The position numbers were made by a program, and so were the translations under genes. From positions 716,225 to 780,224 of the forward strand of contig JADJOZ010000001.1 in the NCBI GenBank assembly GCA_016713525.1: 64,000 nt of DNA. The letters are read 5' to 3'. A model generated the notes under the pieces. The model saw only the letters and a program-made list of their open reading frames with translations, was not told the origin of the DNA and did no database searches. This document shows, one piece after another, positions 28,503 through 43,105 of the stretch. Source of the DNA: Bacteroidota bacterium (GTDB lineage: Bacteria > Bacteroidota > Bacteroidia > AKYH767-A > OLB10). How positions within the stretch are numbered: the stretch's first letter is position 1; every line of letters begins with the position of its first letter.

Positions 28503-29930
28503 ATGACTCCAAAAATTTTACTCCCGTTCTTACTCATTCTAATCTCCTTTTCGGCCAACGCACAGAAGTATGGCAACACCTGGTATTTTGGCGATAAAGC
28601 CGGCATGCATTTCAATAACTGTAATCCCATTCCAGTTCCTACCAGTAACATCGATGGTTTTGAATGTTGCGCCACGTACAACGATACTTCCGGTCAGGTG
28701 TTGTTTGATACGAATGGTGAGAAAGTGTGGAACCGCCTGAATAATGTGATGCCAAACGGACAAATTTCTTCCAGTGGAAGTACTAAAAGTCAGACCATCA
28801 TTATTCCTTTCCCGGGATCCGATTCACTATACTACATAATCACTACCTGTATTCAGGGACAACCTGCATCAGTGTCCGAATTTCATATTGTGGATATGAG
28901 TCTGAATAATGGATATGGCGATGTTTCAAGTAAAAATAATCAGCTCACCACTGCCGTTCCTACCGAACAAGTTGCAGCTACGTATCATGCGAATGGCACC
29001 GATATCTGGTTGGTTTTACATGAATACCTGACAAATAATTTTCTCGTCTTTCATGTTACTCCCGCCGGAATACCTGCTTTCCCGCAATATTATCCGGTTG
29101 GTACCGGCCTGCTCCCTTGTTCGAGTAATATGAATGCACGCGGACAAATTAAGTTTTCTCCCGATGGGAGCAAACTTGCCATTAATGGTAATGGTGTTGG
29201 GAATGATAACCTTTCAAACCTTCTTTCTCTTTACGATTTCGATATCAATACCGGTGTGGTCTCGAATCCCATTGATTTGCCATTCAGCCGAGGCGATTTT
29301 TCACTTTCGTTTTCACCTGATAACACCAAATTGTATGGTGCTACCTGGAAGGCATTTAATTTTACTGCAAGCGATTATAACATTCTTTATCAGTTCGATT
29401 TATCGAGTGGGGTGCCATCAACTATTATTAATTCGAAAGTAATATTAGATTCTATACCGATTCCGCAGTCTTTTGGCGATATGAAACTAGGTCCCGATGG
29501 CAGAATTTATATCGCCCGCAATAATTCTGATTTCCTCGATGTAATTCGTTTCCCCAATGTAGCTGGTGCCGGCTGTACCTATGTAGAATACGATTTTCAC
29601 CTTGGCGGGAAAACTTCCACATTCGGACTGAACAATTACATTGAATACCGCAATTACTGTGACAATACGGTTTCAGTAAATGAAGTTAACGGGAAGGTAA
29701 AACCACAACTTTATCCGAATCCGGTTAATTCATTGACACACCTGAAACTGAATGTTGTTGTTGCAGATGCAACTATTTCAATCAGCAATTCTACCGGACA
29801 ACTTGTGAAGCAGCTATCTCAGCTCAATGGTTCGGAGTTAAAAATCGATTGTGCAGGACTAATTCCGGTTTTTTATGTGATGCAGCTCCATGAAAAGGCA
29901 GGTTGCTTACAACAGAGAAACTGGTGGTAA
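28503..29930 (+). CDS. secreted beta-propeller-like protein with T9SS type-A C-terminal sorting domain
   Basis: Signal peptide (FSANAQ) and C-terminal LYPNPVNSLTHLKLN...ATISISNSTGQLV...GLIPVFYVMQL type-A CTD. The last ~20 aa may be affected by an indel near an A4 run. Confidence 0.65.
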   Translation: MTPKILLPFLLILISFSANAQKYGNTWYFGDKAGMHFNNCNPIPVPTSNIDGFECCATYNDTSGQVLFDTNGEKVWNRLNNVMPNGQISSSGSTKSQTIIIPFPGSDSLYYIITTCIQGQPASVSEFHIVDMSLNNGYGDVSSKNNQLTTAVPTEQVAATYHANGTDIWLVLHEYLTNNFLVFHVTPAGIPAFPQYYPVGTGLLPCSSNMNARGQIKFSPDGSKLAINGNGVGNDNLSNLLSLYDFDINTGVVSNPIDLPFSRGDFSLSFSPDNTKLYGATWKAFNFTASDYNILYQFDLSSGVPSTIINSKVILDSIPIPQSFGDMKLGPDGRIYIARNNSDFLDVIRFPNVAGAGCTYVEYDFHLGGKTSTFGLNNYIEYRNYCDNTVSVNEVNGKVKPQLYPNPVNSLTHLKLNVVVADATISISNSTGQLVKQLSQLNGSELKIDCAGLIPVFYVMQLHEKAGCLQQRNWW

Positions 29931-29965: not shown

Positions 29966-30166
29966 TCAGGAAGCAAGTCCCAAATTAATCACCATGTGTA
30001 CTGCCAGCAGCAAAAATCCCAGAAGCAACAGGATGGATATCAGGAATACTATGGTTTTAATGTAATTGACTTTCCATGATAGCAATAGCCGTCGGATACT
30101 AACTAACTTTTGTCGCGTTTTATAATCCATATTTTGGTACAAACCGGTGCGGGATTGTTGTGGCAC
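29966..30166 (-). CDS. hypothetical small membrane protein
   Basis: 66-aa ORF with one strong TM helix. It may be spurious. Confidence 0.2.
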   Translation of the reverse strand: MPQQSRTGLYQNMDYKTRQKLVSIRRLLLSWKVNYIKTIVFLISILLLLGFLLLAVHMVINLGLAS

Positions 30167-30411
30167 AAAGTAGTGGCGGTATGTTAACTGAAGGTAAAGT
30201 GAGTCCGCAGAATTTTGCAGTATTGAACAATTTTTACTAAAAAGTTACAATTGCGGGGCTCAGCCTTATTAACAGCCTGTTGATAAATAAAATAACAATA
30301 TTTTGTTTTATACCATAACTTTTGTATTTTTGATCTACCAGGAACAGATTCTGTGAATATAGGTTGTACTGCCCCGCAGCATTATAAGTCAGTAGTTTCT
30401 GTCAAACTAAG

Positions 30412-30452
30412 CCGATCATTTCCACCTGTACTCGGGAGTGATCGGTTTTTTT
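30412..30452 (+). terminator. hairpin plus T7 tract (CCGATCA...TGATCGG with a 20-nt loop)
   Basis: Seen directly. It lies downstream of a possible structured region (30250-30400) in which GCGGGGC pairs with GCCCCGC. Confidence 0.35.
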
Positions 30453-30740
30453 ATTGTATATAGTTGATAGTAAGTTTGTTATACATCAAAAAGCCCTGTT
30501 TTTAATTTGGATTCCGAATTTTGTAGTTTATGACATTTCGCGGACCTCATTTCGAATAAAAAATGTCGCCCAAAACCGGTTGATGTTGAAACGGCAATGA
30601 TGAAAAAATGCCGTAAAAAACCAATCTGTAAAAATCAGCGAACAAATTTCAAGTTCTGAATAGCATCCAACAAAACATAAAATATGTTCATTTTCAGCGA
30701 GTTTAAAACGCCATCAACCTCAAATTTTTTTCTATTCACA

Positions 30741-30770
30741 TTTGGCTGACATAAACCTAAATGTTCTACT
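30741..30770 (+). promoter_or_regulatory. Bacteroidota-type promoter for tRNA-Ser (-33 TTG ... -7 TACTTTTG)
   Basis: TACTTTTG matches the TAnnTTTG -7 consensus ~10 nt upstream of the tRNA 5' end, with TTTGG about 22 nt further upstream. Confidence 0.5.
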
Positions 30771-30779
30771 TTTGCCCCC

Positions 30780-30869
30780 GGAGAGTTGGCAGAGCGGTCG
30801 ATTGCGGCAGTCTTGAAAACTGTTGAGGTGTTAAAGCCTCCTGGGGTTCGAATCCCTAACTCTCCGCCA
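30780..30869 (+). tRNA. tRNA-Ser (anticodon UGA), type II with long variable arm, CCA encoded
   Basis: Cloverleaf was built by hand. Acceptor GGAGAGT/ACTCTCC, D-arm GCA..TGC, anticodon stem GCAGT/ACTGT with loop CTTGAAA (anticodon TGA), variable arm GAGG...CCTC, T-arm TGGGG-TTCGAAT-CCCTA, discriminator G, then CCA. Confidence 0.85.
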
Positions 30870-30880
30870 ACAAAAAATCA

Positions 30881-30910
30881 ATGCCCCTTTCGGGGCATTT
30901 TTTATTTTAT
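30881..30910 (+). terminator. intrinsic terminator after tRNA-Ser (ATGCCCC-TTTC-GGGGCAT then a T-tract)
   Basis: Perfect 7-bp GC-rich stem followed by TTTTTTATTTT. Confidence 0.7.
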
Positions 30911-30953
30911 GCCGTTGCCAAGCTTGCTTGAGCAAAAGGCAGAAATAAAAAAT

Positions 30954-31326
30954 GACGGCACAAAGTGCCGCATTGGTTTTTTGTTGAAGCCACCCCCAAA
31001 AGGGATCAGCGAAGCTAATCCCTTTTGGGAAAAAGCCCTGATCAAACTTGTTTGAATCGGGGCTTTTGCTTTTTCCAGCAACCAACCTTGGTTGGTTGCT
31101 TTTTGTTGAAGCCACCCCCCAACGGGATCAGCGAAGCTAATCCCTAACACCAATAAGAACCTGCAGCAACCAACCTTGGTTGGTTGGTTTTTGTTGATGC
31201 CACCCCCTAACGGGATCAGCGCAGCTAATCCCTAGCAAAAATCGCAGACCAATATCAACCAACTTTAGTTGGTTGTTTTTTGTTGAAGCCACCCCCAAAA
31301 CGGGATCAGCGAAGCAACAATTCGCA
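30954..31326 (+). repeat. tandem modular repeat array (4 units, ~88-bp period). Each unit is a palindromic hairpin with a T-tract followed by a conserved 45-nt motif TTTTTGTTGAAGCCACCCCC(N)AACGGGATCAGCGAAGCTAATCCC.
   Basis: Motif copies at 30975-31022, 31100-31144, 31188-31232 and 31277-31326. The preceding hairpins are CGGCACAAAGTGCCG, GCAACCAACCTTGGTTGGTTGC (twice) and CAACCAACTTTAGTTGGTTG. An extra terminator-like hairpin sits at 31032-31074. Confidence 0.75.
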
Positions 31327-31430
31327 TGCCTGTGTCGATGCCAGGTAAAACCTTTTGAACTGGATAAGGAAGAAAATTTCACGTTGGATACGGGAATTAA
31401 GGTTTGTTCCCATATAATTTTATTACATTT
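31318..31430 (+). promoter_or_regulatory. conserved ~110-nt upstream element, copy A (core CTTTTGAACTGG...GAAAATTTCAC..GGATACG.GAATT at 31352-31400)
   Basis: A near-identical element recurs at 33228-33340. Each lies ~200 nt upstream of the next start codon (31552 and 33458). Confidence 0.5.
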
Positions 31431-31551
31431 GAATAAAAAAATTCCAAAATTGATGGGTTTGCTGATACTAAACTTTAAATCGTTTTAGGTCCCTATAGTT
31501 ACCATTTTAACGCTCCGGACAAGTAGGAGAAAAAATTCAAAATAAGCTGCA

Positions 31552-33205
31552 ATGAAAAACATTCACAAAAATCTGCTTCTTGTTATTCTGACTTTTAATT
31601 TTTGCTTTTATTCTCTTTCCTATTCTCAAAATATTCCTACAATTCAGTGGCAAAATACTATAGGGGGAAGTAGTTTTGATTTCCTTTATTCTGCAGAGCA
31701 AACAACAGATGGTGGCTATATTCTTGTAGGATATTCTTATTCAAACATTTCAGGAGATAAAACTGAAAACTTTATAGGTAGTTATGGCAGAAGTGATTAT
31801 TGGATTGTAAAAACTGATTCATCAGGTAACATTCTGTGGCAGAACACTATCGGAGGAGAATATGAAGAAGCACTTACTTCCATAAAACAAACAACTGATG
31901 GGGGATATATTTTGGGTGGATTTTCACAGTCAAACGCTTCAGGCGATAAAACAGAAAATAATTATGATACTTTATGCGCAACTTTCGATTACTGGATTGT
32001 AAAAACAGATTCACTTGGAAATTTAATTTTGGGACATCACCATTGGTGGAAGTGATGAAGATAGACTTTTGGCTATTGAGCAAACAGCAGATAATGGTTT
32101 TATTCTAGGTGGATTTTCCAGATCAAATATTTCAGGTGTTAAAGTTGAAAATAATATTGGTGCATCTCCAACAACTGATTACTGGATTGTAAAAACTGAT
32201 TCGCTTGGCAATATTGAATGGCAAAACACAATTGGAGGTAGTTTATATGACTATCTTTATTCTATTAAGGAAACTCAGGACGGAGGTTACATTCTTGGAG
32301 GAATGTCTTGTTCAAACATTTCAGGTGATAAAACGGAAACCTGCCTATGGTATGGAGACTATTGGATTATAAAAACAGATTCACTGGGAACAATTCAATG
32401 GCAGAATACAATTGGAGGAAATGGCAATGACGCACTTTTTTCATTAGTACAAACCTCAGATGGAGGATATTTACTAGGTGGAGAATCTAATTCGAATATT
32501 TCGTGGGATAAGACTGAAAACAGCATGGGTGACTTTGATTATTGGATTGTAAAAACGAACTCAGTTGGAAACATTCAGTGGCAAAACACTATCGGAGGAA
32601 GTGAAGGTGATTTTCTCGAATCATTACAGCAAACCACTGACGGTGGCTATATACTTGGCGGCTGGTCCCTGTCAAACATTTCAGGCGATAAAACACAAAA
32701 TAATTGTGATAGTACTTTGGGCTATCCAGATTTCTGGATTGTGAAAACCGATGCTGCTGGAAGCATACAGTGGCAAAATACTATCGGGGGCAGTAAAAAC
32801 GATAAGCTTCATTCCATTGAACAAACAATTGACGGCGGATACATTCTTGGTGGCTATTCAGAATCAGACATTTCAGGAAATAAAACAGAAAATTGCATTG
32901 GCTATTCAGATTACTGGATTGTAAAACTTACTCCAGAAACAATCACTTCAAGTGTGCAAACGCCCTATCAGCAATTACCAATTTTAATTTCTCCCAATCC
33001 TTTTACAGATAAATTAAATGTTACTGTCAATAATAGTGAACTTTCAGAAATTATTCTTTATGACATGACAGCAAGAAAAATAATGCAAATGAATTTTACA
33101 AATTCCATTACTCTAAATACAGAACAGCTTGCAAAGGGTTTGTATATTTATGAATTGCGAATTAAAAATGGTATGTCCCCAAAAGGGAAAATTGTGAAAG
33201 ATTGA
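31552..33205 (+). CDS. 7-bladed beta-propeller-like repeat protein with T9SS type-A CTD, frameshift at T-run 32017-32020
   Basis: Track ORFs 31552-32055 and 32069-33205 form one gene. Removing one T from TTTT at 32017-32020 gives a continuous ...DSLGNLIWDITIGGSDEDRLLAIEQTADNGFILGG. There are seven ~60-aa repeats (QWQNTIGGS..D...S..QT.DGGYILGG.S.SNISGDKTEN....DYWIVKTDS.GNI), a signal peptide, and a C-terminal ISPNPFTDKLNVTV...GLYIYELRI type-A CTD. Confidence 0.65.
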
Positions 33206-33227
33206 GACGGTTATAAGCAAGTTTGCA

Positions 33228-33340
33228 CGGGCTTCGTTTCAGTATCCCTGCCAGACATAATCTTTTGAACTGGTCAGGATGAAAATTTCACACCGGATAC
33301 GTGAATTCAGCCTTATTTCCTGAAGGTATTTAAATTTGAA
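33228..33340 (+). promoter_or_regulatory. conserved ~110-nt upstream element, copy B
   Basis: CTGCCAGACATAATCTTTTGAACTGGTCAGGATGAAAATTTCACACCGGATACGTGAATTCAG...AAATTTGAAT aligns with copy A. Confidence 0.5.
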
Positions 33341-33457
33341 TCAAATTTTTTCTTAATTTGCAATAGCGTATAATTTTAGCGACTGACAAGTTGATTATAG
33401 ATAAAATGCATTTTTAAGCAGTTAACATGTATGATGTCATTTGTTTAAATTTATATT

Positions 33458-34018
33458 ATGAAACAATTTTACTGGATTTTTATTTTGCTTGCTGTAATAT
33501 CAAACCCACTTAATGCGCAGCAGGCAGAAGCTGATTTCAAAAAGTCCTTGTTTGTAAATTCAAAAGATGAAAATGTCTATTCGCTTTCTATTGGAGGTGG
33601 CATTGGTGCAGGTAGTCAAGGTGCTACTGGCGGATTGATTGTAGATTTAGACGTTTATCATATTTTAATTGGATATAAGTTGATAAAGCATGGAATTTTG
33701 TTGCCAAAAGACCACAAACAAGCAACTGAAAATTCTTTTTATTTTGGCTATCAATATCGAACTAAAAAAATAATGAGTTCAATTGGTGCAGGAATAGGCA
33801 TCTTAAAATATAAATGTACAAGTGGAATTAATGGCAACTGTTATGACATTGATGAAAACACGAGCCAATGCATACCATTGAAATTAGAGTTTGACTATTT
33901 ATTTTCACCATACATTGGAATTGGAATATCTGCAAACAATACATTTACTGATAATTCCCCCTTGTTTTCCGCTATGTTTCACCTGAAATTTGGTATATTC
34001 TGGAGTCAGGAATATTAA
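33458..34018 (+). CDS. putative outer-membrane beta-barrel protein (hypothetical)
   Basis: Signal peptide (PLNAQQ) and alternating amphipathic beta-strand pattern. It ends with aromatic residues (FWSQEY). No named domain recognised. Confidence 0.35.
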   Translation: MKQFYWIFILLAVISNPLNAQQAEADFKKSLFVNSKDENVYSLSIGGGIGAGSQGATGGLIVDLDVYHILIGYKLIKHGILLPKDHKQATENSFYFGYQYRTKKIMSSIGAGIGILKYKCTSGINGNCYDIDENTSQCIPLKLEFDYLFSPYIGIGISANNTFTDNSPLFSAMFHLKFGIFWSQEY

Positions 34019-34208
34019 GCAATAGTAAGCCTGTAACAACTCTCTCTGCCACCGGATTTATATGTTTAAAGGGTGTGTATCATAAATGGCCTGACAATAT
34101 TTTGATGAGGATTAATGGGTAATGTGGCACATACAAAATTTTTTGTCACCTTTGCTATAGCCATGAAAACTGGCGCCAATAACTTGACATAGCATTAAGC
34201 TCACAACC

Positions 34209-34685
34209 ATGAAGAAACCAATCTTAGTAATTTTAGTCCTTGCAGCAACTTTTTCGCTGGGCTTCGCATTTAAATCGCTTACTACAACCTATACAAACCC
34301 TAACAACATGAAAAGAGTAACCGGAATCGGCGGAGTTTTCTTTAAATGTAAAAATCCGAAGGAAACCACAGAATGGTATAAAAAACACCTCGGATTAGAT
34401 ACCAACCCATACGGTGCAACCTTTGAATGGTACGAAGGACCCGACAGTACCACCAAAGCCCAAACCCAATGGACACCCTTTCCGGAGACCACCAACTATT
34501 TCGGGAACTCGAACCAGAATTTCATGATAAACTACCGCGTTGAAAATCTCGAGGCATTGGTAGAAGAACTAAAAAAAGAAGGCGTAACCATAGTAGACAA
34601 AATTGAATCGTACGACTATGGCAAGTTTGTGCACATTCTCGATGGCGAAGGCAACAAAGTGCAGCTTTGGGAAGCGATAGATTAG
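34209..34685 (+). CDS. VOC (glyoxalase/bleomycin-resistance) family protein, secreted
   Basis: Signal peptide, then GIGGVFFKCKNPKETTEWYKKHLGL and KFVHILDGEGNKVQLWE blocks typical of the VOC superfamily. Confidence 0.55.
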   Translation: MKKPILVILVLAATFSLGFAFKSLTTTYTNPNNMKRVTGIGGVFFKCKNPKETTEWYKKHLGLDTNPYGATFEWYEGPDSTTKAQTQWTPFPETTNYFGNSNQNFMINYRVENLEALVEELKKEGVTIVDKIESYDYGKFVHILDGEGNKVQLWEAID

Positions 34686-34693
34686 CACGAACC

Positions 34694-35119
34694 ATGCAGT
34701 ATTTACTTTATCTGTTAGTCCTTTTTTACTTTTTGTATACACTTTCGTATGCTTTGAAATTCAATAGGGCCAACATTTACTATGCAGGTAAACAAAAGCT
34801 TGTCCATAATCTCATGATTTGGCTGGTTCCTTTTCTGTGGATTCTGCTCTTAAAAACCATTGACAGACCAATTGGAAGAAATTCGTTTTCCCAAGAACCA
34901 GAAACCGGTCCTGATGGAAGTGATGGAGGCGGGCCACCGGATTCTATTCATTTTTTCATGGATCCGGAAGTGCATCGGATGGAGGTTACTCCGGCTCCGA
35001 CTCAGGTGGCTACGATAACCATGGATATGACTCCGGTGGAAGTGGAAATTCAGGTGGTAGTGGAGATGGTGGGGATTAGGGGGGGCATTGCAAAGGCTAA
35101 ACATTATACAATAATATAG
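34694..35119 (+). CDS. hypothetical membrane protein (C-terminus possibly frameshifted)
   Basis: Two TM helices. The alternative frame after the T6 run near 34957-34962 gives a Gly/Ser/Asp/Tyr-rich low-complexity tail (GSGSASDGGYSGSDSGGYDNHGYDSGGSGNSGGSGDGGD). Confidence 0.3.
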   Translation: MQYLLYLLVLFYFLYTLSYALKFNRANIYYAGKQKLVHNLMIWLVPFLWILLLKTIDRPIGRNSFSQEPETGPDGSDGGGPPDSIHFFMDPEVHRMEVTPAPTQVATITMDMTPVEVEIQVVVEMVGIRGGIAKAKHYTII

Positions 35120-35198
35120 GACAACCTTTGAAATTGAGAGTGTTTTGCCGCAAAATACTTAAAAGTTTAGAATCATTTTATATAGTATTTTAAATGAG

Positions 35199-36572
35199 TT
35201 ATTTTTTATTTACTTTAAATTTCCCAGCAACTATTCTTAAATATTTCACTACGATAAAAATTGGAAATAACAGACAAAAAAACAATGATAAAAACCCTAT
35301 TTGCAATTGTTTTTGAATATCTAACATAAACAAGAACACAGAAACGATTAAAGTCAATATAATGTAGTTAATGAAACTATAAATTGGTTCTTTAAGTGTT
35401 GGGTCGAAAATAATCCAATTGAAAGGGTTTTTCTCATAGCCCATCAATTCTGGATTGAAAAAATATAGATATAAAAGGAATAGACAAAAAATTAGGATAT
35501 TGATTAAAATTCCGTTAGCAAGTTGAACTATGCTCAGCTTGTAATACAGGCTATTTCTCGAATCATTATTGACTTGCAATTTAATGATTTTTGAATTTGT
35601 TTTTGTAATTGGATCATGAAGACGGACGTCATAATTTCCAGATCGAAATTTCCTCTTTAAAAGAATTTTTAACTGGCTATTTTCTAGCTGAAACTCAAAA
35701 TCTTTGTTTATTTTATTTGGAACTAAAGAATTAATAAATTGAACTTCAATTTTGTCTTGATCTAAAATATTGTAGGTTCTAAAATCAAAAATTAAAGGGA
35801 TTTCCTGGTCAAATTTACTGCCATTGATGTTCAGAGAGTCATTGCCATCAAATTGATGATTTAATAAGGCTATAGTAGGTGCTTCAGTTTCAACAAGAGC
35901 GGAAATCAATAGAGAGAATGGTTTGGAGTTAGAATTTTCGAAAAAGTCAGGGATCAAAATTACTGAACCAGAATCAATTAATCCAACTATAAAATATATG
36001 CTTTCTTGTTTACAAGATGAAACTAACCTGAAATTGTGAGATTCAAAGTTGCTTTGGTTTAGAACTTGAGGAAAGTTATTTGTAGAATTTAAAAGTTGAT
36101 ATTCAGCATGTGTTAGCGATGACGTTACTTTAATATCAACAGTATTAAATTCGATAAATATTTTACTTTGCAGAGGAGAACTGGATGTCATACCGGATGC
36201 CCTTTTTGGAGTATGCAGTGGAACATAGTTAACTAGTAACAGTAAATGTGAATCTATATAAAGGAGTTTACCATTGATTAGATTTCGGGTTTGAATTTGA
36301 GCATTGACATCAAAAATGCGTTCTTGAAATTGGGAATTCATTTCCGTATAAGTAAATTCATGAACCCTGATATTTGTTGTACTTGAAGATTCATATTTAA
36401 CTAAAAGGCAAATTTTATTTTCTGAAAAAGTAGCATCTAAAATTTCAGGTTTAAGTTGAGAGTCAATTCGTTTGTGAGAGATATTTTTGTAAATCATGTC
36501 GTAATTATTAGTGTTAGCATCAGATTTCGTATAAATCAAAATTCCCAAAATAATTAAAATTAGCTGTCTCAT
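35199..36572 (-). CDS. hypothetical protein: signal peptide, large extracytoplasmic domain, C-terminal TM helices
   Basis: 457-aa AT-rich ORF with N-terminal MRQLILIILGILIYT and C-terminal hydrophobic helices. No recognisable domain. Confidence 0.4.
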   Translation of the reverse strand: MRQLILIILGILIYTKSDANTNNYDMIYKNISHKRIDSQLKPEILDATFSENKICLLVKYESSSTTNIRVHEFTYTEMNSQFQERIFDVNAQIQTRNLINGKLLYIDSHLLLLVNYVPLHTPKRASGMTSSSPLQSKIFIEFNTVDIKVTSSLTHAEYQLLNSTNNFPQVLNQSNFESHNFRLVSSCKQESIYFIVGLIDSGSVILIPDFFENSNSKPFSLLISALVETEAPTIALLNHQFDGNDSLNINGSKFDQEIPLIFDFRTYNILDQDKIEVQFINSLVPNKINKDFEFQLENSQLKILLKRKFRSGNYDVRLHDPITKTNSKIIKLQVNNDSRNSLYYKLSIVQLANGILINILIFCLFLLYLYFFNPELMGYEKNPFNWIIFDPTLKEPIYSFINYIILTLIVSVFLFMLDIQKQLQIGFLSLFFCLLFPIFIVVKYLRIVAGKFKVNKK

Positions 36573-37140
36573 AGTGATAGATTTGTTTGATTTGGAAAAT
36601 GTATATCAGGGTTTTTATTGAAAATTTACACTTTGATTTTTTTCGGATTGATTTATTTGGAAGAAATATTAATTTTATTATTGGTGTATTTAAGCTGCTT
36701 AGTAATTGCTTTCAACAAATTTCACAATTATTGGACTGGATTTCCATCTTAAATAATTTCAAATTTATAAGAATATTAGAGATTTCCAAAATTGCGTTCT
36801 GTAAAACTTGTTTTTATCGAAAACTAGTAATGATTTAGTGCATGATGAGTTATCGATTGAGTTGTAATGATCATTGAAATAGCTTGAAAACAGACACATG
36901 TTGTCAGGTGTTGTTTACATAAGTATTTGAATATTGCAATTTATTGAATATCAGAATAATGTAATACTTACTTAAGGTTTTGGTTGGCTTTTCAGGAAAA
37001 TAGGTAAGGTTTTCTTGCTAACGAAGCAGTTTATTTAATTTCACACTTTTTCGTGGACCATCCTAACTATTTTTTTTAAGGGGAAGAAGTGGGTTCGGGG
37101 AAAAAATGTACTTTTGGTACTAAACTTAAAACTAAAATTT

Positions 37141-37494
37141 ATGAAAAGATCTACTTTGATTGCAATTGCAATTTTTATCGCCTGTAATGTGAATGGGCAA
37201 ACGAATACAGATTCTACTCAGGTCAGAATTGAAATGGTTCAATTGAATTTAAACAAGTATTATAACCAGACAAGGACAGGTACTGGGATATTCGCTTTTG
37301 GAGCTTTACTTGGGACTGCTACACTTATTGGATTGGATCGACAGCAAGGTGAATATAGGTTACGTAATAGTTTGTACGGAGTTGCTGGAGCTGCTGCTTT
37401 GACCGGGTTGCTTATAAATATGGAAGCAATTCGTTTTGTTCGCGAGGCTTCAGAGATTTCCATTGGACCAGGGGGTGCAAAAATTAAATTTTAA
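37141..37494 (+). CDS. hypothetical secreted or membrane protein
   Basis: Signal peptide (MKRSTLIAIAIFIACNVNGQ) and a Gly/Ala-rich TM-like segment. First gene of a three-gene co-oriented cluster. Confidence 0.35.
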   Translation: MKRSTLIAIAIFIACNVNGQTNTDSTQVRIEMVQLNLNKYYNQTRTGTGIFAFGALLGTATLIGLDRQQGEYRLRNSLYGVAGAAALTGLLINMEAIRFVREASEISIGPGGAKIKF

Positions 37495-37509
37495 CACATT
37501 TTAATTAGT

Positions 37510-37854
37510 ATGACTGAAGAAAATGAAAAGTTGCAAACGAAGCATAAGCAACAATTTTGGTTCAAAGTAGGATTGACTGTTATAATTCTATTGTGGCTCT
37601 CTAATTTTTTGATTTTGTTTTGTCATAATCCTGGAACTATTGGTGATTCTTTTGGTGTTGTTAATTCACTCTTCAGTGGATTAGCATTTGGAGGAATAAT
37701 TTATACAATCATACTTCAAAGGGATGAACTACAACTTCAAAGAGACGAACTTAGTTTAACTCGATTAGAATTGAAGAGATCTGCTAATGCACAGGAAGAT
37801 TCTCAAAAGGCTCTTGAAAGGCAAGCAGCTAATTTGAAAAAAGTGCAGAATTGA
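37510..37854 (+). CDS. hypothetical membrane-anchored coiled-coil protein
   Basis: Two TM helices, then a coiled coil with an internal LQRDELQLQRDEL duplication. It starts 16 nt after the previous gene. Confidence 0.35.
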   Translation: MTEENEKLQTKHKQQFWFKVGLTVIILLWLSNFLILFCHNPGTIGDSFGVVNSLFSGLAFGGIIYTIILQRDELQLQRDELSLTRLELKRSANAQEDSQKALERQAANLKKVQN

Positions 37855-38063
37855 GTGCTCTAACAACTCTTATTGAATATTACCAAGGTTTGAATACTAA
37901 AACTTATGACATTATAGCTAAAGAAAGATACAATGATGTGATCACCATTTATATTGCAAGAATTTCTCAAATACTTGAAGATAAACAAAGCTAGATAAAA
38001 AATTCATATAGTTGCATTCTGATACTGATAGTTTTTACAATAATCTGATAAATTTGATTTTTT

Positions 38064-38909
38064 ATGCTTAATGAAATAAGAGATGGCTGGTCCCATTTTA
38101 TTGATAGGTTAAAAAGTCCATTTGGTGGAACATTTATATTTATCTGGATAATCACCCATTGGGAATTCATTTATTATCTAATTTTTGTCAGTTCTGATGT
38201 GACAGCTGAAGAACGAATTATAAACTTTAAATTTTTTTTTCAAGGAAGTCTTGGTAAAAGATTTATCTTGGATGTATTGCAACCTGCATTATTAACATTT
38301 CTCGCAATTGCAACATATCATAGCTTTTCCATTGTAGCGGGAGTAATCACCGGTGCTTTTAAGCGTTATTTGGAGCCCTGGATTTCAGGTGAATTGGGGA
38401 CTGGACCAACCGTTTTGAAATCTGAACTGGATTTGGAATCTCAAAGATTAATGAAACTCCAATTAGAATTAACAAAATGTCAAGATTTGAGAAATGATGA
38501 ATCTAGGCGGAATTTAGGTTCTGAACAAGAATTGAAAAGTAGTATAAATGTTTATTTGGGCCAGCTGAATAATGCAAATGCCAAAATTAATGATATTGAA
38601 AACAGACTGAAAATTTTAAGCGAAGGAGACAATAAACAATTATCAGATTTACATTATAAGCAGAGATTGAAAGAATTAAGATGCTTGGATTTTAGAAATG
38701 ACAGGCATCCAGGGTTAAGGGATATAATGAAGGATAAAAAATATAATTTTTATTTCGATGATGTAACCAAATCATTTAATCGAGAATCATTCAACTTGGA
38801 TGACAGTTCCTATCTTGTAGATGGAGTTAAAAAGTACAATATTTCAACAGTGATGATTAATCATATATACAAAATCAGGTGTATTTTGAAAAAGGGATAT
38901 GAAAAATAA
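38064..38909 (+). CDS. hypothetical membrane protein with C-terminal coiled-coil
   Basis: 281 aa with N-terminal TM helices followed by a long coiled-coil and charged region. No recognisable domain. Confidence 0.4.
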   Translation: MLNEIRDGWSHFIDRLKSPFGGTFIFIWIITHWEFIYYLIFVSSDVTAEERIINFKFFFQGSLGKRFILDVLQPALLTFLAIATYHSFSIVAGVITGAFKRYLEPWISGELGTGPTVLKSELDLESQRLMKLQLELTKCQDLRNDESRRNLGSEQELKSSINVYLGQLNNANAKINDIENRLKILSEGDNKQLSDLHYKQRLKELRCLDFRNDRHPGLRDIMKDKKYNFYFDDVTKSFNRESFNLDDSSYLVDGVKKYNISTVMINHIYKIRCILKKGYEK

Positions 38910-39089
38910 TTTGGTCTATATTAATTTAATAAATTATTCAATGCTAAATAATGGTACTTATTTTGGGTTTGAATTGAATTATGCAACCCAAAAAATGTAT
39001 AAAATTCTATATTCACCAGTTGATATTTCAGAGTTCCAAAATTATTTCTCTGGAACTGAGGATAATTAAGTAATTTGTCGCCTGTGCAT

Positions 39090-39707
39090 CTATCCAGCCC
39101 CATTCTGAGCCACATACTTTTCCGTACACACTTTAACATACTCCAAGCCTCCTCGCTTATCATCCCCACCGTGAAGGGAATTCTCACGGGGTTTAAAGGG
39201 GTTCAGAATATAATTCTTGTACCTGCAGTAGTCGCCTAATTTCTTTTTAAACTGCCGGGAATCACAGTACATCCTTTGTTTTGGGTAAATATCATAAAAG
39301 TGATCCGTGAGCTCCTTTCGGCTTATTTCCACGTTAAGATTGTTAGGATCTGAAAAGTAGGTATCTGCCCAATCCATAAATGACTCTCCGATATCCTGCC
39401 GGAGCTTTCTGGCTTGAATATTCTCAAATGGGGGAGACACTATCCCGAATTTAAAATAAAGCTTCAGACAGGTCGCCATGAGGTTGTAAAACAGATTCCA
39501 CTGGTCGAACTCCCATTCATCAAAGAAAAGCACTCCGAAATCGTCCACCGGTCGCAAATGTGGACCGTAATAGTCTGAAAAGACCATAAACGCCTGGCGA
39601 TCGCTGTGGCTGTATCCGGAGCCGGACAGGGCATGATTGGTTGTAAGGAAGATCTTGGGACTGTTGGTTAGAGTGAGTCGCTTGTCATATTTGCCTTCAA
39701 TTTGCAT
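39090..39707 (-). pseudogene. C-terminal fragment of a P4-type phage/plasmid primase-helicase (D5-like), remnant
   Basis: KIFLTTNHALSGSGYSHSDRQAFMVF...FFDEWEF resembles the region after the ATPase core of P4-family primases. The N-terminal primase and Walker A parts are absent. No flanking integrase. Confidence 0.3.
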
Positions 39708-39806
39708 TCTGCCGGTGATAAGAGGGAATAGGCAATGGAATTGAGGATGGAACCTTTGGAAAGGGGTGGGTTACTTAGGTTCATCAGGTGAAGTGGAAGT
39801 TAAAAT

Positions 39807-40750
39807 TATGTAGATCTTTCAACAACATAATTAACGAATTTTTCAATTAATATTTCAACTAATTTAGGAGTTGAGATGTAATCGTCGAATTTGTTCGTGG
39901 TGCTCCAACCTAGCTCTCCTGTGATGTATTTGTGAAAATAATAAGATTGATTACCACCCTGTAGATTTGTTGAGTTATATTCAAAATTGCATTGTAATCT
40001 TGAATCTGATAATGTATTACTATATTTTCTAATAAATTCAATACAAAGAAGTAAAGGATCAATTCCAATGTGAAAATGAACTTTGGGAACATCTCCTCCA
40101 ATCTGGAGTGATCTTTTGAATAATTTCGATTAGGTTGATTGTCAGGCCATATTTTGTTATATTCCTCAAAAATTTTATCATATAACAGTTGTAATTCTGA
40201 ATTCAAATCTTTAATTGATTCCTCATGCCTGAAATAATTTGACAGGCCGTCGATCCAGTTTTTCTGTGGTTTAAGTTATCAATTATTTCTTTCGGAGTTA
40301 GTTTTAATGAACTCCCATGTAACTCAATCAATTTTTGTTGTATAAATCCGACTGTTAAATCTATCGTAGACAAGTCAAAATTAGCGTATATGTAATTTCT
40401 TCCAATATAATCAATTTGGCTGTTGTCTAAATTCAGAATTATAAAACTATATGGAGTACTAAATTTTGAGTTAGCAATTGTCTAGACATTATTGCTTCTT
40501 TTTCAATCAAGGTCCAGGATGAAATTCCATAATTTTCTCTATGCAAAATGATAACTAAACGACTTCTATGTTTATATATATTTTGTAGTACAGGAATTGC
40601 ATTTTTAAATGCTAATTCCTTTTTATCCGTACTGTAAAGAAATATTTTGTCCGTATTTCCCAGTCTTTTCTGTAATTCTTCGGCTATCTTTTTGTCTTGA
40701 TCCAACAAAGAAAAGGCTATTTCGTAATCAAAATCTAAAGAATCGTTCAT
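39807..40750 (-). pseudogene. TIR/TIR-like domain protein disrupted by at least 3 frameshifts
   Basis: Track ORF 40439-40750 has a TIR-like N-terminus (DFDYEIAFSLLDQDKKIAEELQKRL...SRLVIILHRENYGISSWTLIEKEAI). Translation continues in other frames as TIANSKFSTPYSFIILNLDNSQIDYIGRNYIYANFDLSTIDLTVGFIQQKLIELHGSSLKLTPKEIIDNL, then NSELQLLYDKIFEEYNKIWPDNQPNRNYSKDHSRLEEM, then DVPKVHFHIGIDPLLLCIEFIRKYSNTLSDSRLQCNFEYNSTNLQGGNQSYYFHKYITGELGWSTTNKFDDYISTPKLVEILIEKFVNYVVERST, ending at 39807. Confidence 0.45.
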
Positions 40751-40769
40751 GACCTAAATATTTATATTT

Positions 40770-40982
40770 TTAAATTGGATCTAATCGTTCAAGCTCAAAT
40801 TCATTTGCATGTACAAAAGGCATGAATTCACCCTCAGCAATCTCAACAGGAATTAAAACAAAATCAAACCCTAGCAAAGGATAGATGTCATTTAAAAAAT
40901 GTTTTCTCGGTTTAATTTTATCTCCTTCAATGCTGTGTTTTATTCCTTTATACAGCACAATATCTCCTATTTTGTATTTCAA
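40770..40982 (-). CDS. hypothetical small protein immediately upstream of the TIR-like gene
   Basis: 70-aa ORF whose stop lies 20 nt before the TIR-like start. No recognisable domain. Confidence 0.3.
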   Translation of the reverse strand: MKYKIGDIVLYKGIKHSIEGDKIKPRKHFLNDIYPLLGFDFVLIPVEIAEGEFMPFVHANEFELERLDPI

Positions 40983-41378
40983 TTTTAGTAGAATTTTTAT
41001 GCAATATACGATTTTTAAAAGTAAAAAGGTATTTAGATAGTATCTTTTTGAAATCTAAATGCTGGAACTGAAGCTTACATTTGGCCTCGCTATCAAATAA
41101 TCTAAGTTGATTCATTTTGGTAAAATAGTATGTGTTTTAATAAATGCACAGTAATTTGCTCCACTTTATTTTTGGAACCATCATATTGGGAATTACTTTT
41201 CCGATTTGGAATTACAGGAATTTCATACCCTCACAACCAATCGAACTATTCATGTCCATATTTGTAAAAATTTATTTTATTTTTTTGAAATTTCAAATTA
41301 ACATTTCTGGTTGAATGAGATTTTCTGAATGGTGCGATTGAAACCTGGATATTAAAAATTATTAACTGATTCATAAAC

Positions 41379-42775
41379 TTAATTTTTAACAATAGCCTGA
41401 TTCGTAATTGACAATTTTTCAATTAAAGCCAATGTTTGTCTGTATTCAGCTGCCTCTGAAAGTTTTGTGAATTCTATTTCAGCATTTGTTGTTGTGAGAA
41501 TGAATTTTTCTAATTCATCCAATGTAATTTTGAAAAATTCTTTTCGATAATTAATTTTATTTAGTCTTTGGTTATCGAATTGTTTGTGAATTTCGTATTC
41601 CAATTGTGGTGCATTTTCAGAGTAAATTATTGCATGTACATCGAAATGGAACGGTACAGAGGCATCACCTAATTCCTTAACGCGCTCTTTAGGGTCAAGT
41701 CTACGGGTCATGCCAATTTTGTAAACATTTTCGCCAAATGCACCAATGTTAGAAACAACATATATGTGACCTACTTTTGTTTGCTGAGCCATTGATATTG
41801 CTCTGTCTTTGCGTTCGTGTGCCAATTGTAATTCGGCTTCTAATTGAGCAATTTTTTCCAGTAATTCATTCTTGTTATCAATAAGTCCGGATTCGAGTTG
41901 CTGTTTTGTTTTTTCAATTTCCTTTTCAAAGACTATTTCATCCTGTTCAGCAGATTTTTTTGCACGTTCTAACTCACGTAAAGCACGTTCTTCCTCCTTC
42001 ATCTGTTCTTTAAGACGTTTTTGCTCCTCTTTCTCTTCATATTTTTTTGGAGTTCATATTCATAGGTCAATGCTAATTCTTCAAGTTTGCATTCTAGGAA
42101 GGATTTGGTGACATAAATTTCATGACTTGAACCCAAGGTATTTACATTTTCATAAATCTTGACGATACGTTCTTTGGACTTTTCTATATTGTTCCATTTG
42201 ACTTTTGATATAATTGCTTCACATTCCCCATTAAATGCGAAGATCATAAGTTTTTCATACTGCTTCGTCATTTTTTTTCCTTCAGATTGACTACCACCTA
42301 CCACCCATTGCCTGTCACATTTTGCACCAGCACCTTGTTTAATTAGAAGTCTCTGCTTTTGATAATTTAATTCTAATTTTTCTGAATATTGTGAGCTTAC
42401 TTCAAAGTTAAATTGAGGTTGATATACGCCATAAGTTCCAAGTTCCAGTGTATCTTGAAACAATTCGATTTCCTTCCTCATTTTGGAAATATCTTCTGAA
42501 GTTGCATCAAATGTGCTTTTCTGACCTTCAAGTTGCAATTTTAAATCTTTGACCTTTTCTTCAAATGAATTTATTGATTCAGACATTTTTGCTAATGGTC
42601 CAAATTGAATTATGTGTTCTTTCAATTTGTCCACTTCCAAATAAGCAGAATCTTTTTCTAAATTTAAGCTGGTAATCTTTTTTCTCAAACTGCTTATTAT
42701 AATAAAAGCAACAATCGAAGTAAGGACAATTCCGATTCCTAAGCCGAACAAAGTATGTGTTTGATCATCCATCAT
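41379..42775 (-). CDS. DUF4041 plus T5orf172 (GIY-YIG-like) domain protein, frameshift in homopolymer at 42043-42049
   Basis: Track ORFs 41999-42775 (TM, coiled coil, DUF4041-like) and 41379-42002 (T5orf172-like: VGHIYVVSNIGAFGENVYKIGMTRRLDPKERVKELGD...) are one gene. Adding one A to the A7 run on the coding strand gives a continuous ...YELQKKYEEKEEQKRLKEQMKEEERALRELERAKK. Confidence 0.7.
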
Positions 42776-43105
42776 TATAGTAGTTTACAGGTATTTAATT
42801 CTCGGAAAGTATAAATTTAATATCTAACCAAACCAAGGGTTTTCCCTATTTTTTTCAAGGGTTTTCCCGCAATTTCCTTCTGTAAACTTCGGTTTTGTTG
42901 CATTTTGGGAATTATTATTAATGAACCATTTAGGACGTTTTCATTTTAATGGAGTTAGATTATGAAAGTTTAGTCGTAGTTATTTTGGCGATTTGTGGAG
43001 TTTGCAGTTAATTTATGTGTAATGTAGTAAACAATCTTATAATTGCCTTTTCCAGTAAGATCCATTACTTTTAGTTCAATTTCATTTCAATTTAATACCG
43101 TAATC

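Follow-up and report, generated by a model that had tools for sequence, protein, structure and literature searches.

Genes and repeats beside a tRNA-Ser gene

The window, that is, the whole 64-kb stretch of DNA analyzed here, originates from an uncultured sludge Bacteroidota bacterium. The locus under study comprises two consecutive co-directional genes, each preceded by one copy of a repeat, between a tRNA-Ser gene and a strain-specific island:

30780-30869, + strand: tRNA-Ser(TGA), marking the left side of the variable locus
30973-31316, + strand: four tandem units of ~88-122 nt (truncated in the case of the last one) that contain GTTGAAGCCACCCCC..GGGATCAGCGAAGCTAATCCC along with a GC-rich hairpin and a run of T
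31330-31452, + strand: copy A of the repeat, delineated by the A/B alignment (nhmmer E = 3e-26) and identical in 8 contigs of the species
31552-33205, + strand: gene of a repeat-rich secreted protein ("beta-propeller") with a T9SS C-terminal sorting domain (PF18962)
33240-33359, + strand: copy B of the repeat, 5' of the barrel gene, delineated by the A/B alignment and nhmmer, with nine strain versions aligned
33458-34018, + strand: gene of a 186-residue putative outer-membrane barrel protein, which matches DUF2715 weakly and whose N-terminus resembles a signal peptide
34686-43099, unstranded: strain-specific island to the right of the locus

A frameshift near 32020-32069 divides the window's propeller gene into two parts (31552-32055 and 32069-33205); in seven related contigs the gene is an intact 550-residue ORF. 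An exact look-up of the window's barrel protein returned no record. The tandem units adjoin copy A and number five in the related contig L014. All relatives diverge over the island, and homology with L014 resumes at position 43100.

A sequence-only reading of the window had proposed that two copies of one element precede the two genes. Both copies lie where it had placed them, and they align far better than shuffled sequences (local alignment score of 66 for the core against 14.8 ± 2.1, with 0 of 500 shuffles reaching 66). Likewise, the pattern CTTTTGAACTGG-N4-10-GAAAATTTCAC has two matches in the window and none in 100 shuffles. The A/B alignment reports 85 identical columns out of 123, with ~80% identity in its centre and a maximum of 80-85% at 31347-31397. 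The repeat is real, highly significant and sharply bounded. CTTTTGAACTGG occupies residues 31352-31363 in copy A and 33262-33273 in copy B, and its distances to the start codons (200 nt for the propeller gene, 196 nt for the barrel gene) had been given correctly; the segment GAAAATTTCAC..GGATACG is located at 31372-31392 (A) and 33281-33301 (B). The list of shared blocks needs amending at its left end, where the common block is TGCCAG and not CTGCCAG, and the right block common to both copies is ATTTGAAT. The lengths of the identical blocks fit chance, a longest identical run of at least 12 arising in 34% of the permutations of the same A/B alignment (P = 0.34).

Predicted promoters at the 3' ends of the copies

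The Bacteroidota sigma-A promoter, mapped genome-wide in Flavobacterium psychrophilum, consists of TTTG at -33 and TAnnTTTG at -7, the latter box occupying positions -12 to -5 relative to the transcription start (PMC9723704). Scanning the locus for these motifs, together with folding of the segments that follow, gives:

31403-31406, + strand: TTTG resembling a -33 element in copy A, separated by 17 nt from the -7 box that follows, found with the regular expression TTTG-N15-21-TAnnTTTG
31424-31431, + strand: -7 box TACATTTG of copy A, the sole TAnnTTTG of its intergenic region, with a predicted start at ~31436
31437-31551, + strand: predicted 5' leader of the propeller gene, not structured (fold z = +1.5)
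33331-33338, + strand: -7 box TAAATTTG of copy B, the sole TAnnTTTG of its intergenic region, with a predicted start at ~33343
33344-33457, + strand: predicted 5' leader of the barrel gene (fold z = +0.25)

The -7 boxes lie at the 3' end of each copy, 128 nt (A) and 127 nt (B) before the ATG. Since each copy ends in the sole -7 box of its intergenic region, the element should span ~ -107 to +16 of a predicted promoter, and the segment of highest A/B identity falls at ~ -90 to -40. Copy B has no TTTG at -33, which should lie ~17-21 nt before the -7 box, the sequence there being CCTTATTTCC. In the strain type represented by contigs L014 and L028, the -7 box of copy B reads TATAATTGG, a degraded form. 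In the window, TAnnTTTG is 3.4-fold enriched in non-coding DNA, which accounts for 24% of the sequence and contains 39 of the 75 sites. The tRNA-Ser gene serves as a control: its own TAnnTTTG (30767-30774) predicts a start at 30779 and the tRNA begins at 30780, an agreement within 1 nt. A scan for E. coli-type sigma-70 promoters returned fewer matches than shuffled sequences do, and is therefore uninformative for this phylum. Terminator-like hairpins cluster at 30880-31275, immediately before copy A; the scanned region holds 14 of them where 2.8 are expected. Behind such strong terminators, the propeller gene requires its own promoter. The same hairpin scan reports none after the propeller gene.

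The predicted leaders, of ~115 nt each, are long compared with the median of 24-32 nt of Bacteroidota 5' UTRs (PMC9723704). No homology between them is detectable (alignment score of 17 against 16.0 ± 2.4 for shuffles), in agreement with the divergence downstream of the elements that the sequence-only reading had described. Of its further suggestion, a duplicated module made of a promoter and a 5' leader, the promoter part is supported, with a TAnnTTTG in the 3' block, while the leader part has to be abandoned, the leaders not being homologous.

Another reading has the element itself transcribed and acting as a structured RNA, be it a small RNA, a leader or something riboswitch-like. Short hairpins can be drawn, such as GGGAA..TTCCC at 31392-31411, but those of A and B are out of register, as read from the alignment, and fold z stays within -1.0 to 0.0 for A and B on either strand. 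No Rfam family overlaps either copy even at E <= 5 (region 30700-33600), and the matches at gathering score, in this region or in the window, are to tRNA only. The position of the sole promoter box at the 3' end of the element, which places most of it upstream of the predicted start, also argues against an RNA, a reading that we hold to be extremely improbable. A small protein or pseudogene was likewise rejected: nothing in copy B corresponds to the 71-residue ORF over copy A (31273-31488) or to the 81-residue minus-strand ORF, since the frame is interrupted by a 1-nt indel and soon runs into stops, and, read from the sequence, no reading frame is conserved across A and B.

Distribution of the element and the question of a shared regulator

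The distribution of the element was assessed by one scan each of the GTDB species representatives and of the JGI metagenomes, and in plasmid, phage and viral collections. Public matches stem solely from strains of the same species (95-100% identity), and viral contigs, plasmids and phages returned no match. Within the 64-kb window and ~40 kb of extra strain DNA from related loci, nhmmer reports no further copy, and none, nor any half-site, appears in the window when 1-3 mismatches are allowed. Homologues of the barrel (72-79% at the amino-acid level) and of the propeller (63-64%) in other lineages are not preceded by the element, nor, in the window, is a third T9SS cargo gene at 28503. The looser pattern TTTTGAACTGG-N3-12-GAAAATTTCAC has four matches among the GTDB representatives (Eubacteriales, Methanoperedens, Neomarinimicrobiota and Endozoicomonas), which are attributed to chance since nhmmer aligns the seed region alone (E = 0.004-0.24). 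The same pattern retrieves 8 JGI contigs. L005 alone among them is related; L006-L010 and L012 represent one 25-nt coincidence, present also in the Endozoicomonas match (L004), and the match in L011 lies inside the glgB coding sequence. Lastly, a candidate third, degenerate copy before the glyoxalase gene was discarded: its similarity is limited to 26 nt (33342-33367 versus 34135-34161) and is reached by 12 of 500 shuffles, and nhmmer reports nothing.

The common regulator site suggested by the sequence-only reading would make the shared segment from -100 to -40 the binding platform of one transcription factor that co-regulates both surface proteins, for example a dimer seated on the GAAAATTTC palindrome centred near -60, with selection maintaining the similarity. 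Several features fit. Identity is highest (80-85%) upstream of the -33 position and falls in the spacer, GAAAATTTC is a 4-1-4 palindrome centred 60 nt (A) or 58 nt (B) upstream of the predicted starts, CTTTTGAACTGG is invariant in all copies of all strains aligned, and the promoter-to-ATG distance is alike in both genes. The propeller and barrel genes may be co-regulated. However, the GGATACG and GAATT blocks are mutated in copy B of 5 of the 9 strains, the lengths of the identical runs are within chance, and no regulator gene is adjacent. Polymorphism is also as frequent at shared as at unshared positions, the nine B copies being polymorphic in 12 of the 85 columns where A and B agree and in 6 of the 39 where they differ. 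With blocks of chance length and polymorphism spread evenly, nothing points to a regulator motif under constraint. Copy A and its leader are 100% identical in all strains, but the adjacent repeats are equally identical and strain divergence increases toward the variable island, so that the conservation of copy A says nothing specific about the element.

The sequence-only reading had itself named, as counting against its proposal, that the element would occur nowhere else and would not be conserved in relatives. This is what the sequences scanned show, with no extra copy or half-site in the window, none before the cargo gene at 28503 and none upstream of the homologues of both genes, and it weakens the regulon idea. 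Recurrence, conservation at orthologues and constraint relative to the flanks, which characterize regulon operators, are absent from the window and the related loci, and a shared operator is in our opinion rather unlikely.

The same searches bear on a dispersed, promoter-carrying intergenic repeat family of this genome (MITE- or REP-like), of which A and B would be two members. In two loci with propeller homologues, L026 and L027, which come from two other organisms, nearly all gaps between co-directional genes are occupied by another, palindromic element of ~200 nt, indicating that repeated intergenic modules are common in this gene neighbourhood. Yet the window and the ~40 kb of extra strain DNA from related loci hold two adjoining copies only, which are 20-30% diverged instead of near-identical and display neither terminal inverted repeats nor target duplications, and no other member came to light in the GTDB representatives, the JGI metagenomes or the viral, plasmid and phage collections, so membership in such a family appears improbable.

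Strain variation and the origin of the two copies

Contig L014 has the repeat only once, copy A and the propeller gene both being missing; L028, a 5'-truncated contig, matches the same strain type. L025 lacks most of copy B and the barrel gene. Metagenome 3300012956 contains the L014/L028 strain type, as L028, side by side with that of L005. The locus is thus modular, gene-plus-promoter modules being present or absent among strains. The cassette-like origin that had been envisaged for the propeller gene gains real support from L014 and L028, which lack exactly copy A plus the propeller. There is no sign of a dedicated mechanism, whether of cassette or of recombinase type.

The L014 breakpoint coincides with the left edge of the repeat, where the 13 nt to the left of TGCCAG form an A/B mosaic; farther left, the sequence matches either copy poorly. 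The L025 breakpoint falls inside CTTT|TGAAC, its other end being in unrelated DNA. If the copies were site-specific recombination sites delimiting mobile cassettes, with the propeller module inserted or excised between them, one could understand that direct repeats flank this module exactly, that L014 and L028 retain one copy with a junction at its left edge, that L025 is without the barrel module, and that the locus adjoins a tRNA gene and a variable island. The breakpoints of L014 and L025 differ, though, and define no fixed crossover position, no integrase, transposase or other recombinase is encoded within ~10 kb on either side, and the element forms no hairpin of the kind found at integron-type sites. 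Ordinary homologous or illegitimate recombination is enough to account for the strains, and we give the recombination-site reading very little credence.

The two copies are probably a diverged local duplication of a promoter-bearing segment, in a highly variable locus adjacent to tRNA-Ser. One segment, which covers a Bacteroidota sigma-A promoter from ~ -107 to +16, would have been duplicated locally and then diverged, and the propeller and barrel genes would each probably be transcribed from their own copy, with starts near 31436 and 33343. The copies flanking the propeller module may have arisen with its insertion or have served as the substrate for its loss. Common descent would best explain the A/B similarity, ongoing selection on specific motifs being unnecessary. 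A neutral relic alone leaves unexplained the near-identical distances to the ATG (128 and 127 nt) in front of unrelated leaders, and the position of the identity peak, at -90 to -40 instead of in the core promoter, is compatible, too, with a conserved binding region farther upstream. The duplication is real but ordinary. If correctly interpreted, it is a textbook-type case of a variable locus where a newly placed gene acquired its working promoter through a short segmental duplication; it is of use for annotating these sludge MAGs (predicted starts, a strain-variable propeller gene) and leaves the general picture unchanged.

A more far-reaching idea, which we consider a long shot, is that the element is a portable promoter-plus-operator module moving with surface-protein genes through a hot spot next to tRNA-Ser, its copies providing both a common regulatory input and homology for insertion and excision. 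It would then represent a promoter-carrying gene-cassette system in Bacteroidota, with the L026/L027 repeat as its analogue in other lineages, and its link to the gain and loss of surface-protein genes would bear on how T9SS cargo repertoires diversify in this phylum.

Compared with known systems, the two copies resemble Bacteroidota sigma-A promoters by an exact TAnnTTTG in both and a -33 TTTG in copy A, and differ from them in that ~90 bp upstream of the core promoter are duplicated too and in their long predicted leaders. The sequence-only reading had also called for a comparison with ECF-sigma promoters. Those of T9SS genes carry the SM6 motif and a -10 CGT box (PMC9723704), SigP of P. gingivalis being cited there. 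The two genes are T9SS-related surface-protein genes, the element contains GAAC and copy A a CGT, but GAAC (31357-31360) and CGT (31381-31383) are 20 nt apart in copy A instead of 16-17, copy B reads CAC at the corresponding position, and no ECF sigma gene is nearby; as read from the sequence, no AAC/CGT geometry is common to both copies. The ~200-nt intergenic repeat of L026 and L027, which is not in Rfam and precedes T9SS cargo genes, is likewise a repeated module before consecutive co-directional genes of unrelated secreted proteins. It differs by its unrelated sequence, its long inverted-repeat arms and its many copies (~90% identical) in two different loci, whereas the element of the window, present in two copies only, is devoid of dyad structure. 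Regarding segmental direct-repeat duplications and repeat-mediated deletion, the ~70-80% identity of the copies is low for RecA-dependent recombination, and the L014 junction is a short mosaic at the repeat edge instead of a clean hybrid; the likeness lies in two direct copies flanking a strain-variable gene and in the single copy kept by the strains without it.

Two repeat copies beside adjacent surface-protein genes

The propeller and barrel genes are each preceded by one copy of a repeat of about 120 bp, and this arrangement probably arose by a now diverged duplication of a promoter-bearing segment, giving both adjacent surface-protein genes similar sigma-A promoters. Genes left of the locus are ordinary. 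Its features are as follows:

30780-30869, tRNA-Ser(TGA), upstream of copy A
30973-31316, tandem array of four ~88-122-nt units (starts about 30973, 31096, 31184, 31272), directly 3' of tRNA-Ser
31330-31452, copy A (global alignment)
31352-31363, CTTTTGAACTGG block of copy A
31372-31392, GAAAATTTCAC-N3-GGATACG of copy A
31552-33205, propeller gene: tandem-repeat protein with signal peptide and T9SS C-terminal sorting domain (PF18962)
33240-33359, copy B (global alignment)
33262-33273, CTTTTGAACTGG block of copy B
33281-33301, GAAAATTTCAC-N3-GGATACG of copy B
33458-34018, barrel gene: 186-aa protein, N-terminus signal-peptide-like, matching DUF2715 weakly
34209-34685, glyoxalase-family gene, next after the barrel gene

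The propeller gene is frameshifted in the window near 32020-32069, yielding ORFs 31552-32055 and 32069-33205, but seven related contigs (L005 and six more) hold it as an intact 550-aa ORF; either a sequencing error has introduced the frameshift or the gene has recently become a pseudogene.

Global alignment of the copies returns 85 identical columns out of 123, with an identity peak of 80-85% at 31347-31397. Local alignment of the cores scores 66 (shuffles 14.8 +/- 2.1), and the pattern CTTTTGAACTGG-N4-10-GAAAATTTCAC has two matches in the window and none across 100 dinucleotide shuffles, no additional site appearing in the window when 1-3 mismatches are tolerated. Reading of 31100-33600 confirms that the blocks listed by the sequence-only reading are present in both copies in the same order, GAATT and then ATTTGAAT coming next, and that the core begins 200 and 196 nt from the start codons. 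The longest identical run (12) is expected by chance at 69% identity over 123 columns (P = 0.34; P = 0.14 for the top three runs taken jointly). Since the run lengths fit chance, these blocks provide no evidence for discrete motifs.

Neither copy matches an Rfam family, at the gathering score or at E <= 5, and on neither strand do the copies or the leaders fold more stably than shuffles (z -1.0 to +1.5); that the repeat encodes a structured RNA is extremely unlikely. A coding reading was rejected: none of the ORFs crossing copy A is matched in copy B, one frame being broken by a 1-nt indel and the other cut short by an early stop.

Predicted promoters and leaders

Each copy has as its 3' block an exact Bacteroidota sigma-A -7 box, TACATTTG at 31424-31431 in copy A and TAAATTTG at 33331-33338 in copy B. 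TAnnTTTG occurs at 75 sites in the window, 39 of them within the non-coding 24%, and exactly once in each of the two intergenic regions, 128 (A) and 127 (B) nt before the ATG. Genome-wide start-site mapping in Flavobacterium psychrophilum places the -7 box at -12..-5 (PMC9723704); on that basis transcription is predicted to start at about 31436 and 33343, and the repeat would span about -107 to +16. As an internal control, the box at 30767-30774 gives a predicted start 1 nt ahead of tRNA-Ser. A -33 TTTG is found 17 nt upstream of the -7 box in copy A, and the TTTG/TAnnTTTG pattern scan reports none in copy B. From these signals we infer promoter activity and start sites for both copies. An ECF-sigma motif had also been put forward for comparison, and no AAC-N16-17-CGT arrangement is common to copies A and B.

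At about 115 nt, the predicted leaders are well above the median 5' UTR lengths of 24-32 nt (PMC9723704). Alignment of 31437-31551 with 33344-33457 scores 17, against 16.0 +/- 2.4 in shuffles, a similarity that is not significant and that bears out the divergence noticed downstream of each copy. The earlier proposal of a duplicated promoter and 5'-leader module is thus supported for the promoter, with a -7 box in each copy, and unsupported for the leaders, which are not significantly similar. Separately, a marginal 26-nt similarity (reached by 12 of 500 shuffles) connects the start of leader B (33342-33367, AAATTTTTTCTTAATTTGCAATAGC) with the region upstream of the glyoxalase gene (34135-34161, AAATTTTTTGTCACCTTTGCTATAGC).

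Each array unit comprises GTTGAAGCCACCCCC..GGGATCAGCG(A/C)AGCTAATCCC followed by a GC-rich hairpin and a T run, resembling a terminator. Such hairpins number 14 in the scanned region, against 2.8 expected, and are concentrated between tRNA-Ser and copy A, which means that the propeller gene must have its own promoter. The same scan finds none 3' of the propeller gene, and the barrel gene could be reached by read-through from it as well. The units, four in the window and five in L014 (9333-9768), a strain type without the propeller gene, have no Rfam match and are confined to this locus among all sequences compared. Units 2 and 3 carry AATCCCTA(A/G)C (31139-31148), as does the tRNA T-arm end (30851-30860). 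The array may be what is left of repeated integration events at the tRNA, or its units may be akin to small RNAs.

Distribution and constraint

Exact-pattern scans of GTDB species representatives and JGI metagenomes returned L005 as the sole non-chance match, a contig 97% identical to window 30001-34685; one chance match, within a glgB coding sequence, was discarded. Same-species contigs retrieved via both proteins (L013, L014, L019-L025, L028) all carry the repeat at the same place. It is absent upstream of the barrel homologues L015 (72% aa), L016 (79% aa) and L029 (74% aa), each with a different upstream neighbour, from the propeller homologues L026 and L027 (63-64% aa), and from the window's third T9SS cargo gene (28503); the barrel homologues L017 and L018 (73% aa), with only 68 nt upstream, were left out of this comparison. 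Plasmid collections, phage collections and viral contigs contain no match, and no terminal inverted repeats occur at the repeat ends. Membership of a dispersed repeat family is improbable.

The L026 and L027 loci, which come from other organisms, have a different ~200-nt element in nearly all gaps that separate co-directional genes, oriented like the genes throughout:

L026: 3206-3430, 5772-5989, 7616-7835, 9492-9572
L027: 110-156, 1736-2081, 3664-3919, 5564-5751, 6701-7001, 8800-8854, 10839-11002

It exhibits long inverted-repeat arms, AAAGAAATAAAAAAAAGAAGGG ... CCCTTCTTTTTTTTACTTCTTT, with outer GATAAC/GTTATC, about 90% identity within L026 and ~40-nt stretches identical between L026 and L027. 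It has no Rfam entry and is unrelated to the window's repeat.

Among copy B sequences aligned from nine strains, 12 of 85 columns are polymorphic where A and B agree and 6 of 39 where they differ; positions common to both copies are therefore no better protected. Five of the nine strains, short-read contigs among them, change GGATACG to GGATACA and GAATT to GATTT. Copy A and leader A are 100% identical across strains, as are the adjacent repeats, and identity to the window falls rightwards, from 97.8% in the propeller to about 97% in core B and about 95% in the barrel; copy A's identity is uninformative about the repeat itself, divergence simply increasing rightwards. The invariance of CTTTTGAACTGG in every copy and strain is weak evidence for constraint at best. 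Identity that peaks at -90..-40, a palindrome near -60 (GAAAATTTC) and a promoter-to-ATG distance that is equal in both genes would fit a selected common regulator site within the repeat, but in the sequences scanned the repeat neither recurs nor is conserved in relatives, and polymorphism is not avoided at the shared positions, so that we consider such a site rather unlikely.

Gain and loss of modules in strains

L014 (GCA_016715745.1) follows the window as far as 31315 and picks it up again at 33240; copy A and the propeller gene are missing, and five 88-nt units are followed directly by one B-type copy. The 13 nt left of TGCCAG mix A-type and B-type bases, and resemblance to either copy is poor further left. 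L028, a separate JGI metagenome contig from the same sample as L005, begins inside the B core, the L014 junction not being on the contig, and shares L014's B variant and downstream gene; this agreement makes a sequencing error unlikely for the L014 variant. As judged from the sequences, the single-copy state may reflect either a repeat-mediated deletion or an ancestral empty site. In this strain type the -7 box TAAATTTG is changed to TATAATTGG (L014 9868-9880; L028 17-30; equivalent to window 33328-33340), and the predicted promoter of the barrel gene would therefore be weakened exactly where the sole copy remains. In L025 (propeller 95% aa), copy B is reduced to its left 26 nt, which end in ...CAGACATAATCTTT and run straight into the sequence preceding the glyoxalase gene; the barrel gene is therefore missing.

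To the right, every relative departs from the window at 34686, immediately behind the glyoxalase gene, and L014 homology is back at 43100. The intervening strain-specific island (34686-43099) holds several ORFs without family and fragments of phage-like and defence-like genes:

39090-39707, C-terminal fragment of a large phage-type protein
40439-40750, TIR-domain fragment
41379-42775, split DUF4041/T5orf172 (GIY-YIG-like) gene

IS66 is present in the L019 and L020 versions of the island. No recombinase or integrase was seen in 34686-43099, and the breakpoints differ, with no one fixed site; a site-specific cassette system is very improbable. The locus is thus a hot spot next to a tRNA gene, at which gene-plus-promoter modules are gained and lost.

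The repeat would gain importance only by proving, in a scan of the whole genome or in mapped transcripts, to be a portable regulatory module. Its particular sequence is undescribed and restricted to one uncultured species; the feature is real but of a known kind.
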